DNA of 64,000 nucleotides from a virus (IMGVR_UViG_3300021979_000001:2948-66947), one strand, 5' to 3'; positions 8,919-34,150 are shown, counted from the first letter of the stretch. A program made the numbers and translations. Notes: generated by a model not told the origin, from the sequence alone.

Positions 8919-8957
8919 GAATAGGCCACACCTGTGAAAATCAAACCACTAATATTA

Positions 8958-13465: not shown

Positions 13466-13517
13466 TATATGCCATATAAGGTAATAAGTTTAATAAATCA
13501 TATTATAATTGGTTGCA

Positions 13518-13745: not shown

Positions 13746-13812
13746 AATTATTTTACCGAGTGACAAAAATAAGTTAACTAAATTGCATTACAACTTAGTG
13801 GTATCATTAATA

Positions 13813-14043
13813 TTACGTATCCCCATAATCATAACCAAATCCAGAACCCTTACCATAACCATTTCCCTGCTCGCCACCATACCCCGCACCAACCCCAGAA
13901 CCGTAACTATCTCCATTATTATAACCAGCACTGGCCCCCATCCCATAACTCAAACCATTACCAAAACCCAAACCAGACCCATCCCAGGAGACATCTTTTT
14001 TTAGATAGGGTTCGTGATAACACCAGTCGATAGCGGTATTCAT
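13813..14043 (-). CDS. Gly-X repeat peptide minigene
   Basis: Uses Met4 of the track ORF; leader MNTAIDWCYHEPYLKKD; 76 aa. Confidence 0.55.
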   Translation of the reverse strand: MNTAIDWCYHEPYLKKDVSWDGSGLGFGNGLSYGMGASAGYNNGDSYGSGVGAGYGGEQGNGYGKGSGFGYDYGDT

Positions 14044-14091
14044 AATTATCATCTCGGTAAAAAATGAAAGTTCAAATCACATATATTTCAA

Positions 14092-14287
14092 TTATTCGGA
14101 ATTACACCCCAGAGTGCCATACCTAAACCCAAAACCAAAACCATATTCATTCTCACCACCATATCCCTGACCGGAACACGAGCCATAACTATGACCATGA
14201 CTATGACCGGAACTATCGGTATGATCCGGTTCATCACCTGTTTCATTAGTGTGGTCATCGACAAAACAATAACATGTTTATATTCAT
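14092..14287 (-). pseudogene. Frameshifted Gly-X minigene
   Basis: ATG AAT ATA AAC, then a 1-nt shift before CYCFVDDHTNETGDEPD...GY core. The length of 196 nt is not a multiple of 3. Confidence 0.45.
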
Positions 14288-14313
14288 GTTATAATAAGAG
14301 CCATTTGAATAAT

Positions 14314-14550
14314 TTACGATATACGTCCATGACCATGACCATTGCCCGCCCCAAAACCATAATTATAACCATGCTCATTACCGGCGCTATCCCCAGCACC
14401 ATCCCCCATGCCATAACCTGCATGATACTCATTCCCATGACCCAACCCCGGACTATGATCATCCCCATAATCATCCCCGGCACCGGAACCAGAATTATCA
14501 GTTTTTAGATCGGGGTTATCGCAGTAATGAAACATAATCGATGGTTTCAT
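14314..14550 (-). CDS. Gly-X repeat peptide minigene
   Basis: Uses Met15 of the track ORF; leader MKPSIMFHYCDNPDLKTDNSG; 78 aa. Confidence 0.6.
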   Translation of the reverse strand: MKPSIMFHYCDNPDLKTDNSGSGAGDDYGDDHSPGLGHGNEYHAGYGMGDGAGDSAGNEHGYNYGFGAGNGHGHGRIS

Positions 14551-14581
14551 AATTGTTTCACCAAGTAAAAAATAAGTTAAA

Positions 14582-14824
14582 TTATTCACCATCTACGTTG
14601 CCATGACCATTGCCCGTCCCAAAACCATAACTATAACCATACCCATCATCCACACCATACCAGGCACCATCACCATTGCCATAACCCACGTCATATTGAT
14701 TCCCATAACCTTTCCCCGGACTATAATCATCCCCAGGATCATACCCGGCACATGAACCAGAGCCAGAACCATCGGTTATTGGATCGGGTTCATAGCAATA
14801 ATTAAATGCAATCGGTAGATTCAT
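14582..14824 (-). CDS. Gly-X repeat peptide minigene
   Basis: Leader MNLPIAFNYCYEPDPITDGSG; 80 aa. Confidence 0.6.
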   Translation of the reverse strand: MNLPIAFNYCYEPDPITDGSGSGSCAGYDPGDDYSPGKGYGNQYDVGYGNGDGAWYGVDDGYGYSYGFGTGNGHGNVDGE

Positions 14825-14877
14825 AATTGGTTCACCAATGAGAAAAAATAAGTTAAATCATTCACATTATATTTCAA

Positions 14878-15183
14878 TTATTCATAATTACGCCCAGTGC
14901 CATGCCCATCCCCATACCCAAAACCATCACCATCACTAGACACATAACCATCACCATCAACATAACCAATACCATTGCCAGCCCCATCACCATCACCATC
15001 AACATAACCAATACCATTGCCAGCCCCATCACCCATGCCATAACCTTCGTCATAATCATTCCCATAACCCTGCCCCGGATTATGATAATCCCCAGAATCA
15101 TAACCGGCACCGGAAACGGAACCATCACCATCACTTACTAGATCGGGGTTATTGCAATAATTAAATGTAATTGATGGTTTCAT
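14878..15183 (-). CDS. Gly-X repeat peptide minigene
   Basis: Leader MKPSITFNYCNNPDLVSDGDG; 101 aa. Confidence 0.6.
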   Translation of the reverse strand: MKPSITFNYCNNPDLVSDGDGSVSGAGYDSGDYHNPGQGYGNDYDEGYGMGDGAGNGIGYVDGDGDGAGNGIGYVDGDGYVSSDGDGFGYGDGHGTGRNYE

Positions 15184-15243
15184 AATTATTTCACTAAATG
15201 GTTAAACCACGTCAAATCGCACAGTTAGATTACAGGTATTGCA

Positions 15244-15444
15244 TCATTCACCCCTATTCCCATCACCACGACCATAACCCTCACCAGAAACAAAACCTTT
15301 ACCTGAACCATTCCCAAATCCATACACATTACCATAAGATATACCAAAACCATCCTCGGTGCCATGATCAGAGCCATGACCAAAACCATAAACATTGTTG
15401 GGTATATCATGGTTTTGGAAATATGATTCAATCGATATATTCAT
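15244..15444 (-). CDS. Gly-X repeat peptide minigene
   Basis: Uses Met6 of the track ORF; leader MNISIESYFQNHDIPNNVYG; 66 aa. Confidence 0.6.
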   Translation of the reverse strand: MNISIESYFQNHDIPNNVYGFGHGSDHGTEDGFGISYGNVYGFGNGSGKGFVSGEGYGRGDGNRGE

Positions 15445-15512
15445 AATTAAATCATTCATTTATTACATCATCAACTGTTACCAGGTCCATTGTCATACCC
15501 GCTTATCGGCAT

Positions 15513-15770
15513 CTATTCAGGTTCACCACTTGATCCATCCCAGTTTCCACGACTCGAACCATTACCAAATCCAAAAGCCGAACAATAACCATTTTTGTGA
15601 ATAAAAATATGTTCATACGTTTTGCCATCACCATAACCATAACCATAACCAGAACCATATCCATAACCATTACCAAATCCAAAAACCGAACCATTATCTG
15701 AAACAATTTCCGAAACAATTTCATTTGGGCTGCTATCATCGCAATATAATAAATTTATCAGTTCATACAT
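15513..15770 (-). CDS. Gly-X repeat peptide minigene (divergent)
   Basis: Leader MYELINLLYCDDSSPNE; 85 aa. Confidence 0.5.
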   Translation of the reverse strand: MYELINLLYCDDSSPNEIVSEIVSDNGSVFGFGNGYGYGSGYGYGYGDGKTYEHIFIHKNGYCSAFGFGNGSSRGNWDGSSGEPE

Positions 15771-15772
15771 AA

Positions 15773-15930
15773 TTAATACTGACCATCCATCGAACCCTCA
15801 CCAAACCCATGACCATATCCATAAATGTCACCAACATCATCACATTCGCCGCCCCATTTGTATGACAGTAGTTCGTTAGGACGTCATAATTAAAATAATA
15901 AAACCCGATTAATATATTAATGATACGGAC
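15773..15930 (-). pseudogene. Possible decayed Gly-X minigene
   Basis: A tail frame WGGECDDVGDIYGYGHGFGEGSMDGQY follows a stop. The leader-like INILIGFYYFNYD is in another frame and there is no ATG. Confidence 0.3.
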
Positions 15931-15989
15931 ACCCCAAGTGATAAAAAATGATTTAAATCACTACAACTATAATTCAACTGTTAAGTTCG

Positions 15990-16238
15990 TTAATCCGATC
16001 CATGACCGAAACCAGCACCATATCCAGTCCCAAAACCATCCCCATCACTAGAGCCATGACCATGACCATGACCATCTTTATAGTCTTGACCAGACCCGAC
16101 ACCATTGCCATCCCCATCACCTAGACCATAACCTTTGCCATCCCCTTTACCATAGCCTTCACCATCGCCATCATCATAACTGATTTCCTTTTGATCGGCG
16201 GTATTTATGTAAAAAGATAGGATTACGTATGTGTTCAT
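15990..16238 (-). CDS. Gly-X repeat peptide minigene
   Basis: Leader MNTYVILSFYINTADQKE; 82 aa. Confidence 0.55.
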   Translation of the reverse strand: MNTYVILSFYINTADQKEISYDDGDGEGYGKGDGKGYGLGDGDGNGVGSGQDYKDGHGHGHGSSDGDGFGTGYGAGFGHGSD

Positions 16239-16290
16239 AATATGTCACTCCAAACACAACAATAATAATTCAAAATACACATATTATATT

Positions 16291-16530
16291 TCAATAAGCA
16301 CCGTCACCATAACCATGCCCCCAATGCCCAGTCATATTTGTATCCCCAATATCAAACCCATTCCCATTCCCATTCCCTTTTCCAAAACCAAAACCATAAC
16401 CATCACTATCCCCATTATGATGGACATAACTAAGACTATAACCTTTCCAATTGTCATACCCATCATACCCATCACTATCATCATATTCACAGATATGGAC
16501 ATAATAATACAATATTATGTTAATGTGCAT
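16291..16530 (-). CDS. Gly-X repeat peptide minigene (divergent)
   Basis: Uses Met6 of the track ORF; leader MHINIILYYYVHICEYDDSDG; 79 aa. Confidence 0.5.
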   Translation of the reverse strand: MHINIILYYYVHICEYDDSDGYDGYDNWKGYSLSYVHHNGDSDGYGFGFGKGNGNGNGFDIGDTNMTGHWGHGYGDGAY

Positions 16531-16578
16531 TACGAGTTCCCACATGTAAATAACATAATCAAACAGTTAATATAATAT

Positions 16579-16839
16579 CTATTTCATGGTCATATAAAAA
16601 TGATCTGTTTCATTACCATCATTGGCACCAGCCCCATGTCCAACACCGTTACTATCACCTAAATCATCACCCGAAGCAGAATCATCCCCCATACCAGAAT
16701 TATTTGTATGTCCAGAACCACTTCCTCTACCATATCCAAACACATGTCCTTTTTTATGTCCATGCGCAAACCCACGACCATAGTGATACCAATTACTATA
16801 TACATCGACACAATAAATTACTTTTATGGGCAATTTCAT
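16579..16839 (-). CDS. Gly-X repeat peptide minigene (divergent)
   Basis: Uses Met4 of the track ORF; leader MKLPIKVIYCVDVYSNW; 86 aa. Confidence 0.5.
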   Translation of the reverse strand: MKLPIKVIYCVDVYSNWYHYGRGFAHGHKKGHVFGYGRGSGSGHTNNSGMGDDSASGDDLGDSNGVGHGAGANDGNETDHFYMTMK

Positions 16840-16901
16840 TATTAACATCCAATCAATTAAATAGATAAACCGTAATAATTATAATTATTTCTTACACTAA
16901 T

Positions 16902-17180
16902 TCACCATGATTTTCTGACCCATTTATGCGAGCCGTAACCAATATTATAACTTGACCCATATCCATTTCCCTGTCCATCAGCATAACCATAACCATGCCC
17001 TGCCCCTGAAAGATAACTAACCCCTAACGTTGGGCTTGTATCCCCAACATATGCAGAGCCATCCCCCTGCCCGTCACCTTTAACAGAACCATCCTCATAC
17101 TCCGAACCAGTTCTAGTCCCGGAAAAGTTGTTATAAAGATCGGCATTTCGGTAAAAACACGATTTTATGGTGGGTTTCAT
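16902..17180 (-). CDS. Gly-X repeat peptide minigene (divergent)
   Basis: Uses Met4 of the track ORF; leader MKPTIKSCFYRNADLYNN; 92 aa. Confidence 0.5.
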   Translation of the reverse strand: MKPTIKSCFYRNADLYNNFSGTRTGSEYEDGSVKGDGQGDGSAYVGDTSPTLGVSYLSGAGHGYGYADGQGNGYGSSYNIGYGSHKWVRKSW

Positions 17181-17238
17181 ACTTATCACACTTGCAAAAA
17201 GTTGGATTAGTCATAAAATAAACACAATGGTGGCTGCA

Positions 17239-17484
17239 TTACCCGAAACTATCACCGAAATAAAAACCGTAAGCGTGACCACATCCAAGACCCTCACAAT
17301 TACCAGATTTAGCATTTAATCCATAATCCTGACCATGACCGTAAACGGCCCAATATCGAATTACGTAACTTATTTCATAATGAGAACCACTTCCCTGCCC
17401 CTCGCCATAACCACCCCCATTACGAATTAAAGAACCATTACCCGAACGTTTTATGTAATATAAATCTATTGGTATATTTGCCAT
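17239..17484 (-). CDS. Gly-X repeat peptide minigene (divergent)
   Basis: Leader MANIPIDLYYIKRSGNG; 81 aa. Confidence 0.5.
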   Translation of the reverse strand: MANIPIDLYYIKRSGNGSLIRNGGGYGEGQGSGSHYEISYVIRYWAVYGHGQDYGLNAKSGNCEGLGCGHAYGFYFGDSFG

Positions 17485-17533
17485 TTGACTTCGCCAAGTA
17501 AAAATGGATATATGGAGATAATCATTTCATTGT

Positions 17534-17728
17534 TCACTCTGCCATAGCACCATGCCCATAGCCATAACCACCATCAAACACGTTCCCATACCCATTACTA
17601 TCCCCATCCTCATACCCATCGCTAGAGTCAGACCCGTATCCATACCCGGTTCCATCACTATTGCCATATCGATAGCTATTATTATGTTGATCAACTGTGT
17701 AATATAGTAGTGTTATAGGTAGTTTCAT
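17534..17728 (-). CDS. Gly-X repeat peptide minigene
   Basis: Leader MKLPITLLYYTVDQHNN; 64 aa. Confidence 0.55.
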   Translation of the reverse strand: MKLPITLLYYTVDQHNNSYRYGNSDGTGYGYGSDSSDGYEDGDSNGYGNVFDGGYGYGHGAMAE

Positions 17729-17826
17729 TGTTTTATTACCAAGTTGGGTTCAACCGAAATAATACTGGTAAGTATATCAATCATACTCATATATCATTTA
17801 ATAATATAAGGGATAATGTAGTTTGG

Positions 17827-18213
17827 TTAGTCCTGTCCTAACGCATCTGACGAAAACGGATGTGAATTATCCATATGCTGACTGCATAACCATTCAATTC
17901 CAGTAATGGAGTAAACACCATTAACTGCGGGCGCGCCGCAATAATGACATTTTTTGTGTGCCATTTCGGACGTTCCGTCGTGTTTAGCACGTTTTTTACT
18001 GAACTTGGACTTTGTAAAATGCCCCGCTTTCATCTGGGTAACGGATTTACCCATTGCTCGGTAATTTGCCCCATTAATTCCTGTTGTTTTGGTTTGGTGT
18101 TTTGCTTTACACCCTTTACAACAATACTGCGCCCATCCTCGATTGCGATCTGCAATTCTTGCTTCAAAATCAGTTTTACACCATAAGCAAGAAAATGTTC
18201 CAGTGGCCGCCAT
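17827..18213 (-). CDS. Cys-rich zinc-ribbon-like small protein embedded in the array
   Basis: GGAG SD 9 nt upstream of the ATG. Contains CLWC, CCKGC and CHYC...C..H motifs; 128 aa and basic. Confidence 0.6.
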   Translation of the reverse strand: MAATGTFSCLWCKTDFEARIADRNRGWAQYCCKGCKAKHQTKTTGINGANYRAMGKSVTQMKAGHFTKSKFSKKRAKHDGTSEMAHKKCHYCGAPAVNGVYSITGIEWLCSQHMDNSHPFSSDALGQD

Positions 18214-18348
18214 AGGTCAAATCTCCATAATGGGGGGTAAAAATCATAAACAATTGTAGTATTTTTGGTTATATAAAGCAAAGATTAAAATTATTGTTTT
18301 TTGATGATTGGAATGGCATATAACACGGTGTCATCAATAACTTATTTC

Positions 18349-18594
18349 TCAATCAACCAAGTTTGCAATACCAAAACCATAACCGTTACTATCGCCTTCG
18401 GTATTACCTGGACCATCCCCATAACCTTCCCCATTACTTACACTATTACTAAATCCAAAACCATGCCCTGAACCATTACCAAAACTACGACCACAACCAC
18501 CCCCGTATTCTGATATAGCAATATCACCTACGGAATCATCATCACCTGGATAAAAATCGACGATATGATATGATAGTATGACAGTTTTCATCAT
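18349..18594 (-). CDS. Gly-X repeat peptide minigene (first in transcription order, divergent)
   Basis: Leader MMKTVILSYHIVDFYPGDDD; 81 aa. Confidence 0.5.
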   Translation of the reverse strand: MMKTVILSYHIVDFYPGDDDSVGDIAISEYGGGCGRSFGNGSGHGFGFSNSVSNGEGYGDGPGNTEGDSNGYGFGIANLVD

Positions 18595-19268: not shown

Positions 19269-19664
19269 TTACGAGGATTGTGCGTGTGGTGTCATGTCCA
19301 GCAAGCTGGCAATTGCCACATCGGTGCAAATGGTCAAAGAGTATTCTTCGACGATCACCTTATACGGTGCCGGATGTGAGATTTTGCTGTCATTTGATGT
19401 GCCATATAGTGCCACGCCTTCATACCACGAGGCTTCTTGCACACTTGGCTTGAAATACCACAGCCGTTGTGCATTCTTTATCACAACACCGGTATGATCG
19501 GCGGAGACAACCAGACCGAAATTCAATCCTTCATTTCGGGTGCGAACAAGGCAGTATTTGCCAATTGCAAAATCGGTGACTGGACTGCCGGTAGTTACGT
19601 TGTTCTGCTTGATATAATCAGGAACATCGGTGTTTGGTCCGGCGGCGGCAACTGCTGTTGACAT
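19269..19664 (-). CDS. hypothetical protein
   Basis: 131-aa ORF with GC content visibly above its flanks. Confidence 0.55.
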   Translation of the reverse strand: MSTAVAAAGPNTDVPDYIKQNNVTTGSPVTDFAIGKYCLVRTRNEGLNFGLVVSADHTGVVIKNAQRLWYFKPSVQEASWYEGVALYGTSNDSKISHPAPYKVIVEEYSLTICTDVAIASLLDMTPHAQSS

Positions 19665-19976: not shown

Positions 19977-20882
19977 ATGATAAATAAAAATATGCAAGTT
20001 TCAGATTTTATGTCACAACAAGACCTTACCGAAATATTCACGCCCAACATCCGCAAAACCGCTGCGGGTGCGTTGGTTGGTGCCGGTCTGGCAGCATCGT
20101 CAATGATTGGGCTTGGGTATGGTCTATCAAATACAACGGACACCACAACAATCAATGAACCACTACCAATACCCAGGGGCAAACCCGAAATTAAATCAAC
20201 ACCAACCCCCAAAATCTCCTCACAGGCGCAGTCTAGCAATATTCCAGCACCTCGCATGCGACCATCTACCAAAGACCTCTCACCGGTTGAATTAAAGGCC
20301 CAGTTCATTGATAAAATGGTGCCTATGATTAAATCAGTGAACGATGGTATCGATGAAGTTAGAAATAAAGTTGAAGAAATTTCACATAAAAAGGTAAAAA
20401 ACAAATCTGATCTTGCATACATCAGTAAGTTGATGTCAGAATATAATGTTACCGATGGCGATATAACAACGTTGATTGCCAGGTTACAACCGATTCCGGT
20501 TAGCCTAGCATTGGCACAAAGTGCAGTAGAAAGCGGTTGGGGAACATCGCGATTATCACAAGATGGTAATGTTATGTTTGGTCAAAAGAAATGGACGGAT
20601 GACGAAAATACCATCAAGGCATCAGAAGATGGCACAAAATATGCGGCATTTGGTGATCCGAAAGATAGTATTGAAGCATATGCCAGAAATCTCAATTCGC
20701 ATCCCGCATATAAGCATTTACGTGCTGCCCGCTGGTGGCTTAAAACAGAAAAGGGTCGCAATGCAACAGGATTAGACCTTGCACCACACTTGACCAAGTA
20801 TTCCACAAAAGGCGATGAATACACTAAACAAATTGCCCGTGTTATTAGACAGAATGATTTAACCAAATGGGATAATTCGTGA
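19977..20882 (+). CDS. Membrane-anchored glucosaminidase-domain peptidoglycan hydrolase (Bax/FlgJ-like)
   Basis: N-terminal TM segment AAGALVGAGLAASSMIGLGYGL plus the motif LALAQSAVESGWGTSRL..GNVMFGQKKW. The track ORF starts at a TTG at 19896; the first ATG is at 19977. Confidence 0.65.
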   Translation: MINKNMQVSDFMSQQDLTEIFTPNIRKTAAGALVGAGLAASSMIGLGYGLSNTTDTTTINEPLPIPRGKPEIKSTPTPKISSQAQSSNIPAPRMRPSTKDLSPVELKAQFIDKMVPMIKSVNDGIDEVRNKVEEISHKKVKNKSDLAYISKLMSEYNVTDGDITTLIARLQPIPVSLALAQSAVESGWGTSRLSQDGNVMFGQKKWTDDENTIKASEDGTKYAAFGDPKDSIEAYARNLNSHPAYKHLRAARWWLKTEKGRNATGLDLAPHLTKYSTKGDEYTKQIARVIRQNDLTKWDNS

Positions 20883-21577
20883 CCAATATTGCGGTAATCA
20901 GTATGCCACGAACCGGATCATCTATCATTATGGTATTGCTAACTGGCGATAGGGTGAATCTTGGTGAAATAACCAATAAAGATCGTCTTACCCAACATTA
21001 CATTGGATGTAATAATACCAATATCAAAATACCGTTGACGGTAGATGATGTTTTTACTACGTTAAATCAACGACATATCAGTTATATTGCAAAATTTCAT
21101 TTATTACAAAACATCGAGTATGGATTTGATACAAAATTATTTGATGTTCGGGTATTTACGCATAGATTGGATGTTGTTCAATCATGTCTGTCCTTAATGA
21201 TAGCCAGAAAAACGGGTATATATTCATCTACTGATAAGCTATCGGTATTGCCATTTGCAGTTGACATTAAAAAGTTTACTACCGAACTTAATGCACGAAT
21301 GCAGTTTCTACGTCATTTCGTTGATACCAATCTTGATGATATTGATTTTGTTATATCATATGAAAATGATTTGTCTGAATTAAAGCAATATTTTGGTTAT
21401 AGCGATGGTCCAGGACAACTTGTGGAAAATTACCCGGATAAAAATGAAATTATCACAAACTATAACGAATTGATTAATATTGCCGCCCCGTATTCGGGCG
21501 AAATAGACGAAATCAATGATATTATCATGGAAAAGAAAAAGGCCACCTTATTAAATGACCTTTTATCGATAATATGA
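20879..21577 (+). CDS. NodH/Stf0-like carbohydrate sulfotransferase
   Basis: 5'-PSB-like loop VISMPRTGSS and 3'-PB-like motif HRLDVVQSCLSLMIARKTGIY. GTG start overlaps the upstream stop. Confidence 0.55.
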   Translation: MTNIAVISMPRTGSSIIMVLLTGDRVNLGEITNKDRLTQHYIGCNNTNIKIPLTVDDVFTTLNQRHISYIAKFHLLQNIEYGFDTKLFDVRVFTHRLDVVQSCLSLMIARKTGIYSSTDKLSVLPFAVDIKKFTTELNARMQFLRHFVDTNLDDIDFVISYENDLSELKQYFGYSDGPGQLVENYPDKNEIITNYNELINIAAPYSGEIDEINDIIMEKKKATLLNDLLSII

Positions 21578-21578: not shown

Positions 21579-22667
21579 TTACTTGAACTGATCACCAAAC
21601 GGATCAAAATCTTTTCCGCATGTTTTGGCACATACTTTTAATTTACCTGCGGCACAACTTGGTTTTGACCATGTGCTTTCGATGTAATTGAACATTGGCC
21701 CGGCTAAAATCTTTTCAACTGAAACCATGATACCATTGATTGCATCTTTGCCACCAACATGCTCGATTATTTTCCAAAGAGGCGATGATTTTGGTTCCAA
21801 ATACCATACATAAAGCTGGTTGGCGGTCCAACAGCATGGAAATACCAAACCTTCTGCCGATATATATATTGACCCTTCGGTATCAGTTTTGCAGGTGATC
21901 GGGGTATTATCCAAATAATTTTGCAAGCTACCATGCTTCGCAATTAATGATTGTTCCTGTTGCAAAGCATTGTTTTGGTATTGCGGATCAATTGGTTTTT
22001 CCAGGACGTGTTTTACGGTCCCATCCTTACCCATAACATCTTGCGAATCTTTGCCTTTTAGTTGGTTATTTGAGAAGAACCGCCCGGTTTTTTTAACCTG
22101 GAAGTGAATAAAACCCATTTCTGCGGCAAGGGTGCGGGCATCGTCCACCTGGTGTTCATTGTGTTTGAAAACAATATAATCCCAAATTGCGCGGCCACCA
22201 GATTGAATAAATGATTCCACATTACGCATAATAACATCGAACCGGCATCCTTGACGATACAGATGATTTGTATCATCAAGACCATCAATACCAAACCGAA
22301 CACTGTCACCTTTTTTTGATAACAGTTTACCGAGTTCTCCCCACCATTCGGGATTTTTCGCGCTACCATTGGTATTCATACCAAGGGTAATATTTGGGTT
22401 CATTTCTCGGAAATATTTCATTACGTCCAAGGTATCTTGGGCTGCAATTGGGTCGCCAAAATTACCACACATGTAAATTCGATTAAGACTTAGTAAAAAT
22501 TCCTTTGTGAAGATTTTTTTACAATCATCTAACGTCAATTCGGTAATCGGCAGGGATGGGTTTACCCATGTTCCAAGGACATTTCGTCCACATTGCGGGC
22601 ATGATGCATTGCATCTGGATGTGATTTCCAAATGCACAGTTTTAATACGAGAATATTCAAATGCCAT
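21579..22667 (-). CDS. Radical SAM enzyme with SPASM/twitch-like C-terminal Cys cluster (copy 1)
   Basis: CNASCPQC (CX3CX2C) at residues 19-26. Also CKTDTEGSIYISAEGLVFPC (CX13GX4C) and CAAGKLKVCAKTC. Confidence 0.85.
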   Translation of the reverse strand: MAFEYSRIKTVHLEITSRCNASCPQCGRNVLGTWVNPSLPITELTLDDCKKIFTKEFLLSLNRIYMCGNFGDPIAAQDTLDVMKYFREMNPNITLGMNTNGSAKNPEWWGELGKLLSKKGDSVRFGIDGLDDTNHLYRQGCRFDVIMRNVESFIQSGGRAIWDYIVFKHNEHQVDDARTLAAEMGFIHFQVKKTGRFFSNNQLKGKDSQDVMGKDGTVKHVLEKPIDPQYQNNALQQEQSLIAKHGSLQNYLDNTPITCKTDTEGSIYISAEGLVFPCCWTANQLYVWYLEPKSSPLWKIIEHVGGKDAINGIMVSVEKILAGPMFNYIESTWSKPSCAAGKLKVCAKTCGKDFDPFGDQFK

Positions 22668-22672
22668 GATTT

Positions 22673-22939
22673 TTAATCCCAGGTAAGATAAAACAGAATT
22701 GCGCTATCTATATCATTAAAAAGCCAAAATTGCGGATTGAATTGCTTCGTTATTATATTATTGTCATTGCACCATTTTGTAATTTCATTTTGCACCAAGT
22801 ATGCTTTATCAAAGTCGATTTTAACAACCGTGTTAAATGAAACGTTGCGTAGTATATCACACAAATGGTCATTCACAATATTACCCCCGATAGGACCGTA
22901 AGTATGTGAAAAGTGATCAATCGACATTATTTTATTCAT
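22673..22939 (-). CDS. hypothetical small protein (88 aa) immediately upstream of the rSAM gene
   Basis: ORF with a 4-nt overlap to the upstream gene and a 5-nt gap to the rSAM gene. Confidence 0.5.
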   Translation of the reverse strand: MNKIMSIDHFSHTYGPIGGNIVNDHLCDILRNVSFNTVVKIDFDKAYLVQNEITKWCNDNNIITKQFNPQFWLFNDIDSAILFYLTWD

Positions 22940-23637
22940 TTTATACCAATCATCATAAAACGGGTATAATTGGCGGTGCTAATATATTTGTCTCCTTCGA
23001 ACATAACATTTGTCATTGGGGCCATTGCTTTAAACTCGCCAATACTGTTCACACAATTGATGTGATCGCGTCCACCAAATAGGTTATTTGATTGGATAAC
23101 GCATAGCGTTCCAGACGGAATCATGTTCCACCAGGTAGCAACATCAATATGTTCGCATGATGTATTAACGATCACATCGGGACGTTCATGTAATGTTACA
23201 ACAGACCCATCAGATCGTTTCGTATCATATTTATGTCCCGTATAATCAATATTGAACATATCACCGGTTGATGCCTTGAACCGCCATCCATTTACAACAT
23301 ATGGTATTTTATTTACCGCTTCTGCAATAACGGCGCATTCGGGATCGATGTCAAAACTTCGAATAACTCCTATATCAAGATTTGATCTGAACAGCATTGC
23401 GGGTAGTGTTCCCAGCCATCCCCCCAGAATGAACATAGTGGTCATTTTGGGATTGATTTTTGTTAGTTCCGCAACCAGCCATTTTTTTGATTGGAGTTGC
23501 CCCCATGACAATGCATCGTCCCAATACGCATCTGGATATTGGGATATAGCTTTGCGTAAATTAGATAAAAACTGGTCATCTGTGATATATTCCAGCTTAT
23601 GTAAAATATCATGCGATTGTATCATAAACGTGGTCAC
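22936..23637 (-). CDS. Putative class I SAM-dependent methyltransferase-like protein
   Basis: Gly-rich loop MFILGGWLGTL followed by an acidic strand IRSFDIDPE. The match is weak. Confidence 0.35.
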   Translation of the reverse strand: MTTFMIQSHDILHKLEYITDDQFLSNLRKAISQYPDAYWDDALSWGQLQSKKWLVAELTKINPKMTTMFILGGWLGTLPAMLFRSNLDIGVIRSFDIDPECAVIAEAVNKIPYVVNGWRFKASTGDMFNIDYTGHKYDTKRSDGSVVTLHERPDVIVNTSCEHIDVATWWNMIPSGTLCVIQSNNLFGGRDHINCVNSIGEFKAMAPMTNVMFEGDKYISTANYTRFMMIGIK

Positions 23638-24349
23638 TCTTTTTAAATTGTTCAGTTAGCCAGTTCCAATCATTGATTTTCGCCAACTCGGGTTGATTAT
23701 CGCAATATTTGATACCATATTGTTCGCCCGCTTTTGCACCAGCTATTGAGAACTGACCATATTCACGATCAGTGCCCATCGTTTTCCACGTGGATAATCG
23801 TTGTTCGGTTTCAAAATCCTTTTGGTTTTTTATCGTTTTGCTTGACAACTTAACACATTCACGAAATGCGCTTTTCCAGGTCTCAAATGGTGATGTATTA
23901 TATCGTGTTTCAGAAACCAGTTCATTAACTATATGATATGATGTGGTTACAGATGTCGTCATGTCAATACTAGTGGTATCCACATCTATCAAATGTCTGG
24001 TAGAAAATAGCTTGATTGCACCATATCCATAAACCAAATCATTGACTGCATTTTTACACCGATACACATGGACTCCATTTGGGTCTGGTTCAAATGATGG
24101 GATAAATTCAAATTTATCATAGACCCAATTATCTGCATCAACGGTGAAGAAAAAATCAGTAGTTGATTGCTGCGCACATGCCATATGGGCGGCATGAATG
24201 CCGGTCACACCATGAACACGATCTGCCCATGGTGCAACATCTAACAATCTTGCATAATTCTGTTCGCTATTTGGTTCATTGTAACTTAAAAAGAATATGT
24301 CATACATTGATAAAAATCTTCGTTTTTGTTTATACGTGTCATACGTCAT
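23609..24349 (-). CDS. GT-A-like putative glycosyltransferase, paralog 1
   Basis: Motifs YDIFFLSYNEPN, HGVTGI and FFFTVDADN (DxD-like), shared with 24568..25470 and 25467..26123. Confidence 0.4.
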   Translation of the reverse strand: MTYDTYKQKRRFLSMYDIFFLSYNEPNSEQNYARLLDVAPWADRVHGVTGIHAAHMACAQQSTTDFFFTVDADNWVYDKFEFIPSFEPDPNGVHVYRCKNAVNDLVYGYGAIKLFSTRHLIDVDTTSIDMTTSVTTSYHIVNELVSETRYNTSPFETWKSAFRECVKLSSKTIKNQKDFETEQRLSTWKTMGTDREYGQFSIAGAKAGEQYGIKYCDNQPELAKINDWNWLTEQFKKSDHVYDTIA

Positions 24350-24578
24350 CCCAAGTCACCAGTTCAATATATTGTGCTGGGCCAACCTCACTGGGCAATC
24401 CCCCATATTCATTAACGTAATGACGTATGATCGCTTTGTAAAATCCTTGGCTATCATGATGTGCTTCACGTGTGAAGACGTATAATTCATTATTGCCATA
24501 TTTGTAATGGGCCATCGCAAGACTAGACTCGGTTTGTAACTTCAATAAATCCATGGCATCAAACATATTATAATACAA
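24339..24578 (-). CDS. hypothetical small protein (79 aa)
   Basis: ORF that overlaps both neighbouring genes, suggesting translational coupling. Confidence 0.45.
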   Translation of the reverse strand: MYYNMFDAMDLLKLQTESSLAMAHYKYGNNELYVFTREAHHDSQGFYKAIIRHYVNEYGGLPSEVGPAQYIELVTWDDV

Positions 24579-25470
24579 CCTTATCCATATTAGGGAACAT
24601 CAAACCTGATCGAACCGGGTTAATGTATGTCATCTTTACCCACCGACTAGCATCAGGTCCAAGCATTGGTAAATGAAGTCCCAAATGATGTTCTAATAGT
24701 TTGCCATATTTTTCTGCATTCGTCCAGGCACACTCATTTTTATGGGTAATCCATTCTGAATCAAACCAGTCGTAATTATTGATATTAGATATGGATTTAT
24801 GTAATACCCAAGTATCATAAAGACCTAATCTTGCACCATATATTGCCTCTCGACCATGCGTCACATCACTACCAACACACAACCACATCATTAACCGGGA
24901 AAGATTTGATTTGGCAATACGATCAATATCCCACTTGTTATCATCGGGTTTGATGCCATTAGGTAAACTCAATTTTACGCCTTCTCGATACCCCGCACGA
25001 AAGGCTTGATATGCCGATTGGTTACACATTACTGTTGACCCCAATTGATCAATTTGCATATAACGCAATGACCAACAAAAATCAGTTGTGTCGCGACCAA
25101 CGGTTGCATTTTCATGTGTTTTCATATTGACAATATTAACCGGCCAGCATTTGATTCCACCGTTCCCATATGCCAACCCATTGATGATATTTGTTGCTTT
25201 AAACGAATAAACCACATCTTCTAAATTAGTATCATCAAATTCATATTCGAAAATATTTGGATTGATTTCGTTGTCACCATCAATTGTTACAAATCTGGGC
25301 GTTTTGCTCAATCGTGCCGCCCGTTTATGGGCTTTATCAAAACCTTTAACCCCATGAATTCGATGAACCTGCGGGAAATAACCTTCAATTTTCTCATAAA
25401 AGGAATCTGCATATGGTTCATCGTAACTAATGTAAAAAATATCCAGGTCAGATAATCGATAGGTTGTCAT
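24568..25470 (-). CDS. GT-A-like putative glycosyltransferase, paralog 2
   Basis: Motifs LDIFYISYDEP, HGVKGF, FVTIDGDN, YGNGGIKCW and YREGVKL. Confidence 0.4.
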   Translation of the reverse strand: MTTYRLSDLDIFYISYDEPYADSFYEKIEGYFPQVHRIHGVKGFDKAHKRAARLSKTPRFVTIDGDNEINPNIFEYEFDDTNLEDVVYSFKATNIINGLAYGNGGIKCWPVNIVNMKTHENATVGRDTTDFCWSLRYMQIDQLGSTVMCNQSAYQAFRAGYREGVKLSLPNGIKPDDNKWDIDRIAKSNLSRLMMWLCVGSDVTHGREAIYGARLGLYDTWVLHKSISNINNYDWFDSEWITHKNECAWTNAEKYGKLLEHHLGLHLPMLGPDASRWVKMTYINPVRSGLMFPNMDKVVL

Positions 25471-26123
25471 TTTATATCCTCAAATTTTAATTTTAGCCAA
25501 GCAAAGTCGTTGATTTTTTTCAACGCGGTTATGTTGTGTTTATTGCGTAATCCATACTGTTCTCCGGCAACTGCGCCTTTGACTACCATATTCGCCCCAT
25601 ACCCGGTTCCAGGATGTTTCCATTGTTCAAGGCGATTAGCATTTTCATAATCATCGGAAACTGCAAGTTTTACGCATTCACGAAATGCTGCTCGCCAACA
25701 ATCGAAATCTGATGAATTATAATGTGTGATTGACTTGACTTCGGGGATAATTTTTAGTTCAAAAGAAGTGGTCATGTCTAATGGTTGATCTGACATATTA
25801 AGAACAATTTCTTTTGGAAATAGTTTTATACCACCCCAGCCATATTCTAACCCGTTAACTGGGTTTCGTGCATACCAAAGATGCACATATTTGCGATCCC
25901 ATGCGGAAAGTTTGATGGTGAAATCAAAATCAATAATTTCTGAATCCGCATCAATAACAAAAAAATTTCTGGTTTTGGATAGCTTGGCGCACTCATAATG
26001 TGCATTATGAATTCCGGTTATTCCAGACACATGCGACGAATGCGGTGCATGTCGAACAAGTTTTTTCCAATGTTGTTGTGCCATTGGTTCATTATAACTT
26101 AAGAAAAAAACGTCATACATCAT
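25467..26123 (-). CDS. GT-A-like putative glycosyltransferase, paralog 3
   Basis: Motifs YDVFFLSYNEP, SGITGI, FFVIDADS, YGWGGIKLF and FRECVKL. Confidence 0.4.
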   Translation of the reverse strand: MMYDVFFLSYNEPMAQQHWKKLVRHAPHSSHVSGITGIHNAHYECAKLSKTRNFFVIDADSEIIDFDFTIKLSAWDRKYVHLWYARNPVNGLEYGWGGIKLFPKEIVLNMSDQPLDMTTSFELKIIPEVKSITHYNSSDFDCWRAAFRECVKLAVSDDYENANRLEQWKHPGTGYGANMVVKGAVAGEQYGLRNKHNITALKKINDFAWLKLKFEDIK

Positions 26124-26218
26124 TTAACTTTCGGCTTTATTCCAATGACCATTATAATACCGAAATCGATAGTCAAAATCCATATATTTAAAAAAACTCA
26201 CAAAATGCTATTTTTATG

Positions 26219-26247
26219 TTGACGAAATTTTTTTAGCGTTTAATATA
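26219..26247 (+). promoter_or_regulatory. Sigma70-like promoter candidate for the NYN gene
   Basis: TTGACG, a 16-17 nt spacer, then TAATAT/AATATA, about 50 nt upstream of the ATG at 26298. Confidence 0.4.
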
Positions 26248-26297
26248 CACGTTATCGACAGGGGAAACGGTTTCCCTTAAAAAAAATTCTTTGATGA

Positions 26298-26870
26298 ATG
26301 GAAAAACAAATGTCTAATGCAAATCTTTTTGGTTCTAAACCCAGTGATCGCGTTGCTGTGTTTTTCGACGGGGCGAACCTGTTTGCCAGCACTCGGGCCT
26401 TGGACGTTCACTTGGATTATTCCAAGCTGACCGAAGCCCTGGGCACGGGATGCAACATGATGCGGATGTATTACTACACCGCCCTGCCGGATGGTGATGC
26501 TCAATGCGCGGTTCGTCCGCTTGTGGATTGGCTCGACTATAACGGCTATACCATGGTCACGAAGCCAACCAAGGAATTCACCGACTCCGCAACTGGTTTG
26601 CGGAAAATCAAAGGTAACATGGACATCGAAATTGCAATTGATGTGATGGAAATGGCACCGCACCTTGACCATGTGATCCTGTTTTCCGGTGATGGCGATT
26701 TCCGGCGTCTGGTTGAGGCGGTTCAACGCAAAGGGGTGCGCGTTACTGTTGTATCGACCGTCAAATCGAACCCATCGATGATTGCGGATGAACTTCGTCG
26801 CCAGGCCGACAAATTCGTCGAACTTGCGGACATCATGTCGTATGTCGTGCGGGATGTGCGGGAGAAATAA
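26298..26870 (+). CDS. NYN/LabA-like (DUF88) domain protein
   Basis: VAVFFDGANLF...NMDIEIAIDVM...VILFSGDGDFRRLVEAVQRKGVRVTVVS. GC content is well above the flanks. Confidence 0.75.
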   Translation: MEKQMSNANLFGSKPSDRVAVFFDGANLFASTRALDVHLDYSKLTEALGTGCNMMRMYYYTALPDGDAQCAVRPLVDWLDYNGYTMVTKPTKEFTDSATGLRKIKGNMDIEIAIDVMEMAPHLDHVILFSGDGDFRRLVEAVQRKGVRVTVVSTVKSNPSMIADELRRQADKFVELADIMSYVVRDVREK

Positions 26871-27048: not shown

Positions 27049-27771
27049 ATGAATACTTTATCGATAAATGAACTAAGAAATGATTTAAAAGAATCAACAA
27101 ATAATATGTCCTGGACCGTAAGTAATATTATCACCGATGATGGTCTTTTACTACCACCAACGTCCGATTCTAAAGAAATATCGAAGTTATTAGAGCGACA
27201 AGCGGAAATACATTTGAGCAAGATTGCGGATAAGTATGGGTATGTTTTTGAAACAAGTAGTAGACAAAATACATACCCGGACGGAACATTAACAAAATAT
27301 GATGCTGGCAGAATACTCCATAGAATAGCAATAGATGCAAAAAGCACGTTTGAAAAACCATCCATGAATTTGACACTTGGTAGCTACACATCATTTTTAT
27401 TGAACGACAATAAAAGCATTACATATCCATATTCGACATATGATGACCATTGGGTTATGATTTTTACATATCGTCGAACAGAGGATGGTTCTTATGATTC
27501 AGTCAGATGGTATTTAACTGAAAAAGCCCGCATCACCGGGTTGGTGGCGGGTAGCGGCAACACAAAAAATATAGGGAGTGTTCGTTTCAGAAAAGTAGAT
27601 GATTTAACATCAATTAATGGGCCATTTGCCCGTTTCAAAAACATGAAAGGGGCTTCTGATCACTATTGGCGCAACTATGATCGTTTGCGCAAAGAAATCA
27701 AAAGCCCTGGCGATTTGATAATGCACCCGGAATTTGTTCAATTCACAAATCTGGAACGTAGTAATTGTTGA
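27049..27771 (+). CDS. EcoRV-family type II restriction endonuclease (PD-(D/E)XK)
   Basis: Matches EcoRV as I recall it along its length: KIADKYGY, QNTYPDGTL, IAIDAKST, LTLGSYTSF, ITYPYSTYDDHWVMIFTYRR, AGSGNTKNIGSV, HYWRNYDR. Confidence 0.75.
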   Translation: MNTLSINELRNDLKESTNNMSWTVSNIITDDGLLLPPTSDSKEISKLLERQAEIHLSKIADKYGYVFETSSRQNTYPDGTLTKYDAGRILHRIAIDAKSTFEKPSMNLTLGSYTSFLLNDNKSITYPYSTYDDHWVMIFTYRRTEDGSYDSVRWYLTEKARITGLVAGSGNTKNIGSVRFRKVDDLTSINGPFARFKNMKGASDHYWRNYDRLRKEIKSPGDLIMHPEFVQFTNLERSNC

Positions 27772-28828
27772 TTTTGTGTTGTAAAGCTGGAATTTTTGAT
27801 GATATTCCTTCGGTGGAAAGAATAATCAATCGATCTGCGGTCACGTAACTTTCGCACTTTGCATTGGTAAATGTCCCTAATTCGTTCCCATATCCGATTA
27901 GGATACCGCAATTAAGATTTAAAATATTGTTTGCGGTTTGTTTCCAGTCAATAACCGTGCGGTTAATGGCAACAGAGATCACACTATCTCCTTTGGCCGT
28001 GAATAAATCTTCTATGATTTCTTCGGTTCCAGGCGCGACCATCGCCCGAACCGCCATTGCTGGATAACTGCGCATGGGACGAATAACCGATGTTGCACCG
28101 GCAGCAATGATACGTTTTCGATTATGATCTGATACGCATTCAGCGATGATGGGAACGGATGGGTTTTGTTCACGAACGTGGTATACCGTGGAGAACGTGA
28201 TTGAGTCATCATCATTGCTGCCACTAGGTGCGATAACAAAGATCGCACGGCATTTGGTCAAACCGACTTGTTCGGACATGCCAGGACTGTTGATGTTTCC
28301 ATGATTGAAAATTGTTCGATTGTCAAAATCGCACAGGTTGGTCGTCCATTGGTCAGTGAGGATATTAATTGCGATTTTATTATATTCTGGAATATCACGA
28401 ATTTCCCGGATGAATTCCTGAAAATATTTTACCGCATTTGGTCCATTCGGTGACCCGATAACTAAAATGTGATCGTTCAATTTCCAGTTCCATTTCCCGG
28501 TTTTTATTGCATTTGATCGAAATTCGCGCATATCTTGATAAATGTCAATCATTCTAGCAAAAATTGCCAATGCTGGAATAAACAATACCATAACGCTTAT
28601 TATTCGACCGATAGGGGTTGATGCGGACAAATCCCCATATCCAATTGTAGTGATACTGGTTGAAGCCAACCATAACGCATCACCGATGGTCATATTTTCA
28701 TATATGACCATCGTTGGAACAAATATCCCGATACATAGTAATAAAATTGCACCTAATTCAAAGAACTCGCGTTTTGTCGTCTTGTTTCGAATTAGTTGAC
28801 GATTGCGCCAAAAAAACAAAAAGTGCAT
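27743..28828 (-). CDS. 2TM potassium channel with C-terminal RCK/TrkA-N-like domain
   Basis: Selectivity filter TSITTIGYGD lies between two TM helices. It is followed by ILVIGSPNGPNAVKYFQEF, which looks Rossmann-like. Confidence 0.8.
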   Translation of the reverse strand: MHFLFFWRNRQLIRNKTTKREFFELGAILLLCIGIFVPTMVIYENMTIGDALWLASTSITTIGYGDLSASTPIGRIISVMVLFIPALAIFARMIDIYQDMREFRSNAIKTGKWNWKLNDHILVIGSPNGPNAVKYFQEFIREIRDIPEYNKIAINILTDQWTTNLCDFDNRTIFNHGNINSPGMSEQVGLTKCRAIFVIAPSGSNDDDSITFSTVYHVREQNPSVPIIAECVSDHNRKRIIAAGATSVIRPMRSYPAMAVRAMVAPGTEEIIEDLFTAKGDSVISVAINRTVIDWKQTANNILNLNCGILIGYGNELGTFTNAKCESYVTADRLIILSTEGISSKIPALQHKINNYYVPDL

Positions 28829-31289: not shown

Positions 31290-32687
31290 TTATTCGCCGG
31301 TGAATGGTTTCGACGAGTGACGGGTTGTCAGCTTATCGAGTGCCCCAAGGCTGGTTACAATGTCCAACGACGTTGGTGCCGCAACGGATGAACCACCACC
31401 ATAATAAATATCCGGCATCGACACTGTAATGTCTTTTAGATTTGGATAAATAATTTGGGCGGTATCGCGTGCCAATTCTGCCATATAAATATCTTTGGCA
31501 TCTTGTAACGCCTTGTATTTGGCACGGGCAACGTCGGCTTCGGCCAGGCCAGTTTCACGAATAGATTCTGCCTTGAATTTTGCGGCCTGGGCCGTCGCAT
31601 TTTGAATATCTTTATCCGCAACTGCCATTTCAAGTTCCTTCTGTTTTTTCAGAAGGGCAATTTGCTTTTCCTTGTTTTGTCGAACTTTTTCCAGTTCCGC
31701 AGTTTGCCGTTCCACTTCCACCTGCTGAACAGCCCGGATAATAGCCAATTCTTTTTCTTTTTGTGCTTTTTGCACATCCCGCGCCTTCTCAATTTCCATA
31801 TTGAGAGCGATGGTTTTTGCTTCGGTGCGAGCGGTATCTTGTTCCTGCAACGAAGTGATACGTTTTGCGACCAACAGCTTTTTATCCCGCAGCAACGTTG
31901 TCAACTGGGGATCGGGTTCGGGACGACCGATAGTAACCTGCCGAACTGAAATCCCATACAGTTCAAGCGGGTTTGAAATCCGCAATTCGGCCCCGGCAGC
32001 ATTTGTGGTGATCACGTTTTTCCAAACTAGTTGGTTTCGGCTTTCCAACTTGTTTGCATCGGAATTCTCCGAATTAACGGCAGCAAAGTCGGTTTGCTGG
32101 ACTTCAACTTGTTTCCGTGTGGTTTGATACAAACCATAGGTTAACTGATTTTCAAGTTTTACCTTGAAATCGTTTAGGCCCCCTTGGAAAAATTCTTCCC
32201 CGGTATATTGCGTCCCTGTGACCACCGTGACGTTCTTGGCATTTTTAACCATCAAAGAATCAATGAGGTTGTCTTTGCCACGAAACTCCGAATGCATCAG
32301 AAGAATTTTCTGAACATCAGATGACAATTTAAACCGGAAGGTGGCCGGAATATCTGCAATATAAGTATCAGCAAATTGCACTGATACTGGGTCAAGCTGC
32401 CGCGTTGACGACGCTTCTTCACTGGCATCTTGATTGCCGAATGATATGACCACTGCTTGTGGATATTCGTAGATGGTAGTAAAGAATGGGATTTTAGCAT
32501 GAACCCCAGGCTCGGTATATACGATCAACCGGCCCAAAAGGGTATCTTGCAGGACATAAGTGATGCCTGCTGCGGTGGTGAAAAATGATGAAAACCCGAT
32601 GATTAAGGCAAAAATGGCAAAAATGCCGCCAATAATCCACCGTTTGATAGATTGTAAAATCATGTCATGTTCTTCTGTTTGGTCCAT
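31290..32687 (-). CDS. SPFH/band-7 (prohibitin/flotillin-like) membrane protein
   Basis: N-terminal TM segment, PGVHAKIPFFTTIYEYP, and a long charged coiled-coil region. Confidence 0.6.
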   Translation of the reverse strand: MDQTEEHDMILQSIKRWIIGGIFAIFALIIGFSSFFTTAAGITYVLQDTLLGRLIVYTEPGVHAKIPFFTTIYEYPQAVVISFGNQDASEEASSTRQLDPVSVQFADTYIADIPATFRFKLSSDVQKILLMHSEFRGKDNLIDSLMVKNAKNVTVVTGTQYTGEEFFQGGLNDFKVKLENQLTYGLYQTTRKQVEVQQTDFAAVNSENSDANKLESRNQLVWKNVITTNAAGAELRISNPLELYGISVRQVTIGRPEPDPQLTTLLRDKKLLVAKRITSLQEQDTARTEAKTIALNMEIEKARDVQKAQKEKELAIIRAVQQVEVERQTAELEKVRQNKEKQIALLKKQKELEMAVADKDIQNATAQAAKFKAESIRETGLAEADVARAKYKALQDAKDIYMAELARDTAQIIYPNLKDITVSMPDIYYGGGSSVAAPTSLDIVTSLGALDKLTTRHSSKPFTGE

Positions 32688-33570: not shown

Positions 33571-33840
33571 TTAACTACGATTTACGTTTGGTGATCCCGT
33601 TAAAATTACCGCACCACATGCACAAACTGCCGCCACGTGGGCTGTTTCTTGTCCTTCGACACTTACATTGGGATGCACCGCAATAATTTGATTAATGCCG
33701 TGATAGGGAATCGGACATGAGACCAGATCACCGACACGGGCAGTTGAAATACCATTTGTGGTATGTTTGACCGCGCCGGTGATAATGGTTGCGCCATGGT
33801 CGCTGGTATCCCCTATGCGTGATACCGAAAACCCTGCCAT
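33571..33840 (-). CDS. PAAR-domain protein (spike tip)
   Basis: MAGFSVSRIGDTSDHGATIITGAVKHTTNGISTARVGDLVSCPIPYHG. Uses the internal ATG of track ORF 33571..33972. Confidence 0.6.
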   Translation of the reverse strand: MAGFSVSRIGDTSDHGATIITGAVKHTTNGISTARVGDLVSCPIPYHGINQIIAVHPNVSVEGQETAHVAAVCACGAVILTGSPNVNRS

Positions 33841-33844
33841 TTTT

Positions 33845-34150
33845 TTATGCCAGGCGCAGACTTGATGTCTGCTCCGAATAAAAATGGGACATATTGGTAT
33901 TTGCCTGCACTGGCATAATTGCAATACCTGTTTTGTTAATTTCAATAGATGATGATGGGTCACATCCCACAAGAACAGGCTCTAACTGAATGCTTTGCTG
34001 GTTATCGATGATGACGCGAACGAGCGAAAACGGTTTCTGCAATGTAATGGAATCAGTCGAGGTTTTTAATAACCGCCCAATGATTTCTTCACCAGAAGTC
34101 AGTTTTGCGATTACTGTTGAATTTATTTCGGGTTTCTTTTCGATAAGCAT
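33845..34150 (-). CDS. hypothetical protein
   Basis: 101-aa ORF ending 4 nt before the PAAR start. Confidence 0.5.
   Translation of the reverse strand: MLIEKKPEINSTVIAKLTSGEEIIGRLLKTSTDSITLQKPFSLVRVIIDNQQSIQLEPVLVGCDPSSSIEINKTGIAIMPVQANTNMSHFYSEQTSSLRLA

Follow-up and report, generated by a model that had tools for sequence, protein, structure and literature searches.

What do seven closely packed genes of a large phage do, and on which product do they act? The genes occupy positions 21579-26123, on the minus strand, of a 64,000-nucleotide stretch of viral DNA (IMGVR_UViG_3300021979_000001:2948-66947), which is called the window here; the contig to which it belongs measures 457 kb. An initial annotation had described a translationally coupled operon of seven genes, among them those for a radical S-adenosylmethionine (SAM) enzyme, an 88-aa protein, a methyltransferase-like protein and three GT-A-like paralogs. 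It had suggested that the operon may tailor the Gly-X peptides encoded by a nearby tandem gene array, with a glycan module or a DNA modification module as equally possible alternatives. We conclude that maturation of the Gly-X peptides is not the dedicated task of the operon. With somewhat better than even confidence, we read it instead as a small version of a widespread, uncharacterized cassette whose cytoplasmic enzymes assemble and tailor a sugar-containing product. This reading draws on the folds and motifs of the proteins and on how their genes are conserved and accompanied in other genomes.

The arrangement of the seven open reading frames (ORFs) agrees with the first description, in which neighboring genes share 4-29 nt or are separated by 5 nt. 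Between the longest ORFs there are overlaps of 4, 11, 11, 29 and 4 nt and a single gap of 5 nt. Six of the seven genes are conserved outside the window, which identifies them as real genes rather than chance ORFs in a chance arrangement. Five of the seven proteins have no match in Pfam, PHROG, NCBIfam or PADLOC, and a megablast search of the operon against GenBank phages returned no match. No transmembrane segment is predicted in any protein of the operon, and members of the conserved cassette families lack them with few exceptions, which points to a cytoplasmic pathway.

The three paralogs were designated A (25467..26123, minus, 218 aa), which is the first gene of the operon, B (24568..25470, minus, 300 aa), a long subtype with a C-terminal extension, and C (23609..24349, minus, 246 aa). 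No model of Pfam, NCBIfam or PHROG matches any of the three, and a search of PDB sequences with a profile of the family found nothing. Structural comparison by Foldseek, which had been proposed as a check on the initial annotation, was performed for paralog A and for the methyltransferase. The AlphaFold2 model of paralog A, based on an alignment of 49 sequences, has a predicted local distance difference test (pLDDT) score of 93.8, and every significant Foldseek match to it in the PDB and BFVD is a GT-A glycosyltransferase. These matches include WrtF, A064R of chlorovirus PBCV-1, TarP, GtrB, SunS/ThuS and the polypeptide GalNAc-transferases; only two multidomain proteins, both from uncultured phages, are close structural matches. 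Among the 49 aligned sequences the invariant residues are D4, H42, D58xD60, YGxGGxK, D116 and FRExxKL, and paralog B keeps the invariant residues of paralog A. The DxD motif (D58/D60 in A) reads IDAD in A, IDGD in B and VDAD in C, and its presence indicates that the enzymes probably depend on a metal ion and a nucleotide sugar. Four motifs had been reported as common to the paralogs. Three of them, (Y/L)D(I/V)F(F/Y)(L/I)SY(N/D)EP, (V/I)D(A/G)D and RE(C/G)VKL, do occur in all three proteins, but HGV.G is limited to B and C, and paralog A reads SGITG. Pairwise identity is 43% between A and C and 31% between A and B. The modeled fold and the shared motifs support the assignment of A, B and C as GT-A-fold glycosyltransferase-like proteins. 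A search with paralog A yielded 1768 homologs, none of which carries a Pfam domain and many of which lie on contigs of 200-570 kb.

The 233-aa protein encoded at 22936..23637 (minus; 233 aa from a GTG start, 229 aa from ATG 23625) had been labeled methyltransferase-like, and its AlphaFold2 model (pLDDT 93.2) bears this out. Foldseek returned 686 matches at E <= 0.001, the listed top ones being almost all class I methyltransferases. The best PDB matches, at E about 1e-7, are small-molecule O- and N-methyltransferases such as NodS, COMT-like enzymes and RebM; the substrates of these class I relatives are small molecules or sugars. One homolog is named as a class I SAM methyltransferase and another matches PF13649/PF08241; GGW, SFDID, NTSCEH, QSNN and DHINC are conserved among the homologs. 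On the strength of the model, the 233-aa protein is assigned as a class I SAM-dependent methyltransferase.

Two small genes complete the set. The first, s79 (24339..24578, minus), is 79 aa long as the longest ORF and is likely 75 aa from ATG 24566, which is the start in the gene call of the source contig. Ten homologs of 73-75 aa were detected in related loci with a hidden Markov model (HMM; E 1e-37 to 1e-49), in all ten cases directly after the methyltransferase gene, and a further copy is present in locus L205. By this conservation s79 is a real gene of a family of approximately 74 aa, for which Pfam, PHROG, NCBIfam and PADLOC gave no match. The second, an 88-aa ORFan (22673..22939, minus; 84 aa from ATG 22927), occupies the interval that separates the methyltransferase gene from the radical SAM gene. 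In a set of 1.84 billion representative proteins it matches itself only; PDB sequences gave nothing significant (best E = 2), and the family libraries gave no match at E <= 0.01, with a chance-level NCBIfam match at 0.033. A role for this protein as a PqqD-like peptide-binding partner had been offered as speculation. Neither small protein shows PqqD similarity at the sequence level in Pfam and NCBIfam (to E 0.1), and the PDB search likewise gave nothing significant; the speculation thus finds no support. The HMM of the 79-aa family misses the 88-aa protein, so that no paralogy between the two is detectable.

The last gene of the operon (21579..22667, minus) encodes a 362-aa protein with all three of the cysteine motifs attributed to it: CX3CX2C at residues 19-26, CX13GX4C at residues 259-278 (CKTDTEGSIYISAEGLVFPC) and CX7CX3C at residues 338-350. 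PF04055 (Pfam Radical_SAM) matches at 34.7 bits, above the gathering cut-off of 29.5. In an alignment of 32 sequences nine cysteines are invariant (19, 23, 26, 67, 259, 278, 279, 346 and 350), five of them C-terminal, and 2377 homologs were found at E < 1e-10. Full SPASM domains have CX9-15GX4C followed by CX2CX5CX3C. The C-terminus of the 362-aa protein has CX13GX4C and the terminal cysteines but lacks CX2CX5CX3C; PF13186 does not match, and the NCBIfam SPASM and twitch models match weakly, far below their cut-offs. From these motifs we assign the protein as a radical SAM enzyme whose C-terminal cysteine domain is SPASM/twitch-like, in line with its first description as SPASM-like. In a profile search of PDB sequences, the nearest solved structures share only the common core, at the level of MoaA/NifB. 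A PADLOC match to viperin (1.4e-5) spans the common core only and was taken as generic. A second radical SAM gene of the window (50881-51966, minus), 32% identical to that of the operon and assigned to the same PHROG 21308, stands alone between ribonucleotide reductase genes.

The company kept by these families elsewhere is the second line of evidence. A first set comprised 80 of the more than 596 loci found by a scan of IMG/VR, two loci from metagenomes and Ralstonia phage RsoM2USA, 83 in all; four huge-phage loci brought the full comparison to 87. Every locus of the first set contains the GT-A family, mostly in two or three copies; the radical SAM family occurs in 54, with up to 13 copies per locus, the methyltransferase in 27 and s79 in 10. 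Typically, fibre-like genes come first, then a gene of 116 aa, a GT8-like pair and a gene of 200 aa; a long GT-A gene and a short GT-A gene come next, followed by the methyltransferase, s79 and several radical SAM genes. Tail-fibre-like genes lie upstream on the same strand in 48 of the 83 loci, at a median distance of 2.7 kb from the cassette; the fibre label rests on weak PHROG/Pfam matches together with the published description of the pelagimyophage 'host recognition cluster' (PMC7029224), in which related cassettes lie. Related loci also encode nucleotide-sugar epimerase/dehydratase, UDP-glucose/GDP-mannose dehydrogenase and carbamoyltransferase, as well as Asp/Asn hydroxylases and 2-oxoglutarate (2OG) oxygenases. 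RsoM2USA contains, in addition, long tandem runs of genes for proteins of approximately 190-210 aa (RsoM2USA_274-284 and 301-331; L297 25363-32072 and 38617-49895, L298 1-6900), which, judging from gene lengths rather than sequence comparison, may be a large paralog array.

Several loci of huge phages resemble the window closely. In L002 and L204 the order is a NYN nuclease gene, A, B, C and methyltransferase, and in L205, the nearest relative by synteny, it is NYN, A, B, s79, a C-methyltransferase fusion, a radical SAM ortholog of 60% identity and three more radical SAM genes. Orthologs of paralog B with approximately 45% identity follow an A-type gene in L002, L204, L205 and L206. The fusion in L205 is a single 473-aa ORF (L205 11797-13218) that joins the paralog C ortholog to the methyltransferase, which argues that transferase and methyltransferase act in one pathway. 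L206 additionally has a true sulfotransferase (PF13469) and hydroxylases, and L207 a carbamoyltransferase, with a Peptidase_S74 fibre gene directly downstream. The published cassettes nearest to the window are those of the pelagimyophage and cyanomyophage host recognition clusters (PMC7029224), whose families are homologous to those of the window; they were reported in passing and never characterized. An example is the cultured Pelagibacter phage Mosig EXVC030M, in which tblastn found matches for the methyltransferase and radical SAM proteins. According to the deposited annotations, the Mosig methyltransferase stands beside genes for a carbamoyltransferase, three MoaA-like radical SAM proteins, a sugar aminotransferase and an epimerase, next to VrlC. 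The window version differs from these cassettes in its single radical SAM gene, its three GT-A paralogs and its extra ORFan, and it lies beside a NYN nuclease gene rather than fibre genes, in a phage contig of ~457 kb.

The cassette is not confined to phages, and by homology it is also present in Bdellovibrionota. Radical SAM orthologs of 54-56% identity were found on a Bacteriovoracaceae chromosome, on a 1.7-Mb metagenome contig and on a contig with a protein labeled Halobacteriovoraceae by NCBI. On the last two, the ortholog occurs together with a GT-A pair, the methyltransferase and GT2 genes; on the Bacteriovoracaceae chromosome it stands beside GT2 and PMT_2 genes, with a GT-A pair and a methyltransferase homolog approximately 15 kb away. 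The bacterial radical SAM clusters contain up to ten radical SAM genes along with GT2 genes and, in one case, PMT_2. Approximately 55 Streptomyces genomes hold, of the whole cassette, the GT-A family gene only; this single gene lies inside a glycosyltransferase cluster, flanked by genes for GT4, GT1, GT2_4 and an AAA_33 kinase. Rows of 7-13 radical SAM genes next to glycosyltransferases, an uncommonly high density, were also seen in L208 (3331-16525), L210, L062 and L083, which include bacterial and phage loci.

Against this background we assessed the proposed link to the Gly-X array. The array (1-18594, minus) comprises approximately 52-55 tandem genes, 52 ORFs with Gly-X runs being counted, and each product begins with a short conserved segment and continues as (Gly-X)n. 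The DNA pattern (GGNNNN)x11GG occurs 80 times in the window and not at all in shuffled sequence. GC skew is -0.32 to -0.51 over the first 18 kb of the window and near zero in the rest. If the operon served the array, the system would resemble those for ribosomally synthesized and post-translationally modified peptides (RiPPs): the radical SAM enzyme, the transferases and the methyltransferase would modify the Gly-X peptides, perhaps with the 88- or 75-aa protein as a peptide-binding partner. The array does end 3 kb from the operon on the same strand. CX13GX4C is typical of peptide-modifying radical SAM enzymes, and the solved glycosin S-glycosyltransferases SunS and ThuS are among the distant GT-A matches of paralog A. 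The radical SAM/SPASM maturases of RiPPs (PqqE/PqqD, sactipeptide and cyclophane synthases) share with the enzyme of the operon a core followed by CX13GX4C and further C-terminal cysteines. The operon differs from those systems in that it has no PqqD-like partner, no conserved precursor gene and no canonical CX2CX5CX3C, and no N-terminal recognition domain precedes CX3CX2C, which begins at residue 19 of the radical SAM enzyme. Moreover, two plus-strand genes stand between array and operon, so the two do not form one transcript.

The two elements are also distributed differently among genomes. No Gly-X ORF was found within 10 kb of the cassette in any of the 87 related loci, L205 among them, and the complete RsoM2USA genome (343.8 kb) contains the cassette but neither a Gly-X array nor a DUF6948 gene. 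Conversely, a scan of IMG/VR for the Gly-X pattern gave 120 loci, in none of which was a homolog of any of the seven operon genes detected, and Iodobacter phage PhiPLPE and Ralstonia phage NK-7, whose genomes are complete, contain Gly-X genes but nothing that matches the GT-A, methyltransferase and radical SAM proteins. The initial annotation had itself named either finding, operon without array or array without operon, as evidence against the tailoring of Gly-X peptides; both were obtained, and its inference is therefore unsupported. By co-occurrence this explanation is largely refuted, and we regard it as very unlikely.

A different partner of the array emerged from the same loci. Small polar Gly-X genes, partly in tandem, are present in 15 of the 120 Gly-X-pattern loci. 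A DUF6948 gene lies directly upstream of them in 8 of the 15, and also in L163 as detected by tblastn. The window encodes a 131-aa DUF6948 protein (PF22253, 2e-12) at 19269-19664 (minus). PhiPLPE and NK-7 have the same succession of a DUF6948 gene and a Gly-X gene; the Gly-X ORF is unannotated in PhiPLPE and annotated as a fibroin-like protein in NK-7. Such pairs were located at L136 12-580, L292 812-1409 and L293 1810-2566 and in L186 and L133. Judged by gene neighborhood, DUF6948 and one or more downstream Gly-X genes form a conserved pair in unrelated phages, and it is DUF6948, not the operon, that appears as the partner of the array. Literature searches turned up no functional study of the cassette or of DUF6948, and none of the papers searched mentions DUF6948.

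Among the possibilities initially listed, a glycan module fits better, given the folds, the conserved gene set and the carbohydrate-enzyme company. The order of steps, the radical SAM chemistry and the acceptor in the following scheme are inferred. The three GT-A-fold enzymes would attach sugars sequentially, and the class I SAM methyltransferase would then methylate the glycan. The radical SAM/SPASM-like enzyme would catalyze a single radical modification of that glycan, such as an epimerization, C-methylation, dehydration or oxidation. The conserved 75-aa protein may serve as an accessory subunit, and the 88-aa ORFan may be a lineage-specific addition. As the acceptor we tentatively prefer a protein of the phage surface or of host recognition, which would amount to virion glycosylation, with confidence clearly below even. 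We prefer it because the cassette adjoins fibre-like genes on the same strand, because protein hydroxylases share the same islands, and because the cassette lacks membrane, flippase and polymerase components.

There are precedents for such an acceptor. PBCV-1 A064R (PDB 2p72) is a GT-A enzyme involved in glycosylation of the major capsid protein, and paralog A resembles it in being a soluble, virus-encoded GT-A protein; A064R is among the top Foldseek matches of paralog A, yet sequence identity is ~13%. The likeness extends to the pairing of a transferase with a methyltransferase, which are fused in L205. A methyltransferase domain is likewise part of A064R, and the virions of mycobacteriophages are glycosylated by glycosyltransferases of their own. 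We know of no radical SAM enzyme in virion glycosylation by PBCV-1 or mycobacteriophages, or in any described phage glycosylation system.

Several observations weigh against a virion-directed glycan module. The resemblance of paralog A to solved GT-A enzymes is distant (template modeling score 0.4-0.48, E about 2e-4), and no enzyme of the cassette has been characterized to date. SPASM-type radical SAM enzymes act mostly on peptides or proteins, and in this phage the Gly-X array is just 3 kb away. The window has no fibre-like gene homologous to those beside the related cassettes, and the nearest structural-looking genes (PAAR and a tape-measure-like protein) are 7-12 kb from the operon. No gene for nucleotide-sugar synthesis was found in the 64-kb window.

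The same chemistry could be directed at the host envelope, and the acceptor alone distinguishes this possibility from the glycosylation of phage proteins. An O-antigen, capsule or teichoic-acid-like polymer would be modified so that the infected cell stops adsorbing competing phages, as has been proposed for the glycosyltransferases of pelagimyophage host recognition clusters (PMC7029224). TarP, GtrB and WrtF, which are top structural matches, act on cell-surface polymers, and the bacterial homolog clusters hold GT2 and PMT_2 genes. However, neither the operon nor the conserved cassette includes a membrane protein, flippase, polymerase or polyprenyl-phosphate transferase, and the position of the cassette close behind fibre-like genes on the same strand was taken to suggest late co-expression and to suit a virion target better. 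We consider an envelope acceptor rather unlikely.

DNA is the remaining candidate acceptor. In this case the GT-A enzymes would glycosylate a hydroxymethylated base, and the methyltransferase and radical SAM enzyme would tailor the resulting glycan. Phage GT-A-fold enzymes that glycosylate 5-hydroxymethylcytosine (5hmC) in DNA have been described (bioRxiv 10.1101/2023.12.21.572611). They share with the paralogs the fold, the nearest solved structures (TarP and the PBCV-1 capsid glycosyltransferase) and the use of sequential transferases with sugar-modifying partners such as epimerases. Some of them are encoded close to structural genes, and Bdellovibrio has relatives of the base J glucosyltransferase (same source). 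The solubility of all operon products is also compatible with a DNA target. On the other hand, the scanned ORFs of the 64-kb window yielded no TET/JBP dioxygenase, no thymidylate-synthase-like hydroxymethylase and no DNA C5-methyltransferase, so that a nearby enzyme generating 5hmC or 5-hydroxymethyluracil is missing from this set. The published active-site pattern R...DDD...EDY/F was not seen in the GT-A family, whose invariant residues differ. Furthermore, in Streptomyces and Bdellovibrionota the surroundings are glycan-like, with GT1, GT2 and GT4 genes and not DNA-metabolism genes. DNA modification, an alternative in the initial annotation, is therefore kept as a serious but weaker rival, favored by the existence of phage DNA glycosyltransferases with a GT-A fold and the same distant structural neighbors, yet improbable.

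Taken in its broadest form, glycosylation by the cassette could yield an undescribed, radical-SAM-tailored glycan on phage host-recognition structures or other proteins, by a pathway common to abundant marine myophages, 150-570 kb phages, a Ralstonia jumbo phage and predatory Bdellovibrionota; we put this forward as a possibility, with confidence well below even. If true, it would represent a new kind of virion or protein glycosylation, with a sugar coat diversified by radical chemistry. Should the glycan reading be right, a very common, unnamed enzyme set would be a major source of surface or glycan diversity in phage-host recognition, and new radical SAM sugar chemistry would be on offer. 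The set is large: the transferase family counts more than 1,700 clusters and the radical SAM family more than 2,300. It is carried by phage contigs of tens to hundreds of kb, including relatives of SAR11 myophages, and by predatory bacteria. Tailoring clusters of glycosyltransferase, methyltransferase and radical SAM genes, and phage-encoded glycosylation, are already known, and related cassettes have been mentioned in passing; the GT-A family, however, has no curated model, and the gene set has never been characterized. The analysis also removes an unsupported link between operon and Gly-X array and indicates DUF6948 as the real partner of the latter.

The sequences flanking the operon were inspected for signals. 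A terminator-like hairpin with a T-run (21537..21564, minus; pattern scan) lies 15 nt past the stop codon of the radical SAM gene, within the 3' end of the convergent plus-strand gene. Terminator-like sites are not more frequent in the region than expected by chance (10 against 5.9 +/- 2.8), but the position of the hairpin is plausible. At the other end, the interval 26124..26297, from which paralog A and the NYN nuclease gene diverge, is presumed to contain the operon promoter. A sigma-70 scan of this interval found no site on the operon strand and a single one facing the NYN gene; over the region sigma-70-like sites are fewer than expected by chance. The NYN nuclease gene itself (26298-26870, plus) is a conserved divergent neighbor of paralog A in L002, L204 and L205, and the recurrence of this pairing in the window and three huge-phage contigs suggests a functional or regulatory link.

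Two neighbors had been cited as signs of carbohydrate chemistry. The glucosaminidase is confirmed (PF01832, 9e-18). The gene called a sulfotransferase (20879-21577, plus) finds no support in Pfam, NCBIfam, PHROG or the PDB, its sole hint being a P-loop-like SMPRTGSS motif; it was rejected as a sulfotransferase, showing no similarity to the PF13469 sulfotransferase of L206 or to any PDB chain. Elsewhere in the window, the large subunit of ribonucleotide reductase is split between ORFs 43934-45673 and 45818-47092 (plus), which match successive parts of one PHROG. Unrelated families are matched as well where the first of these ORFs ends, which could mean an intein or intron. Further products of the window are an anti-CBASS protein (Acb1), a polysaccharide lyase, an amidoligase, a regulator of the ROS/MucR type, a PAAR protein and proteins that resemble YqeY, SPFH/flotillin and a potassium channel, a group recorded at 29785-63760 (ORFs scanned together), 57340-58641, 33571-33972, 31290-32687 and 27743-28828.

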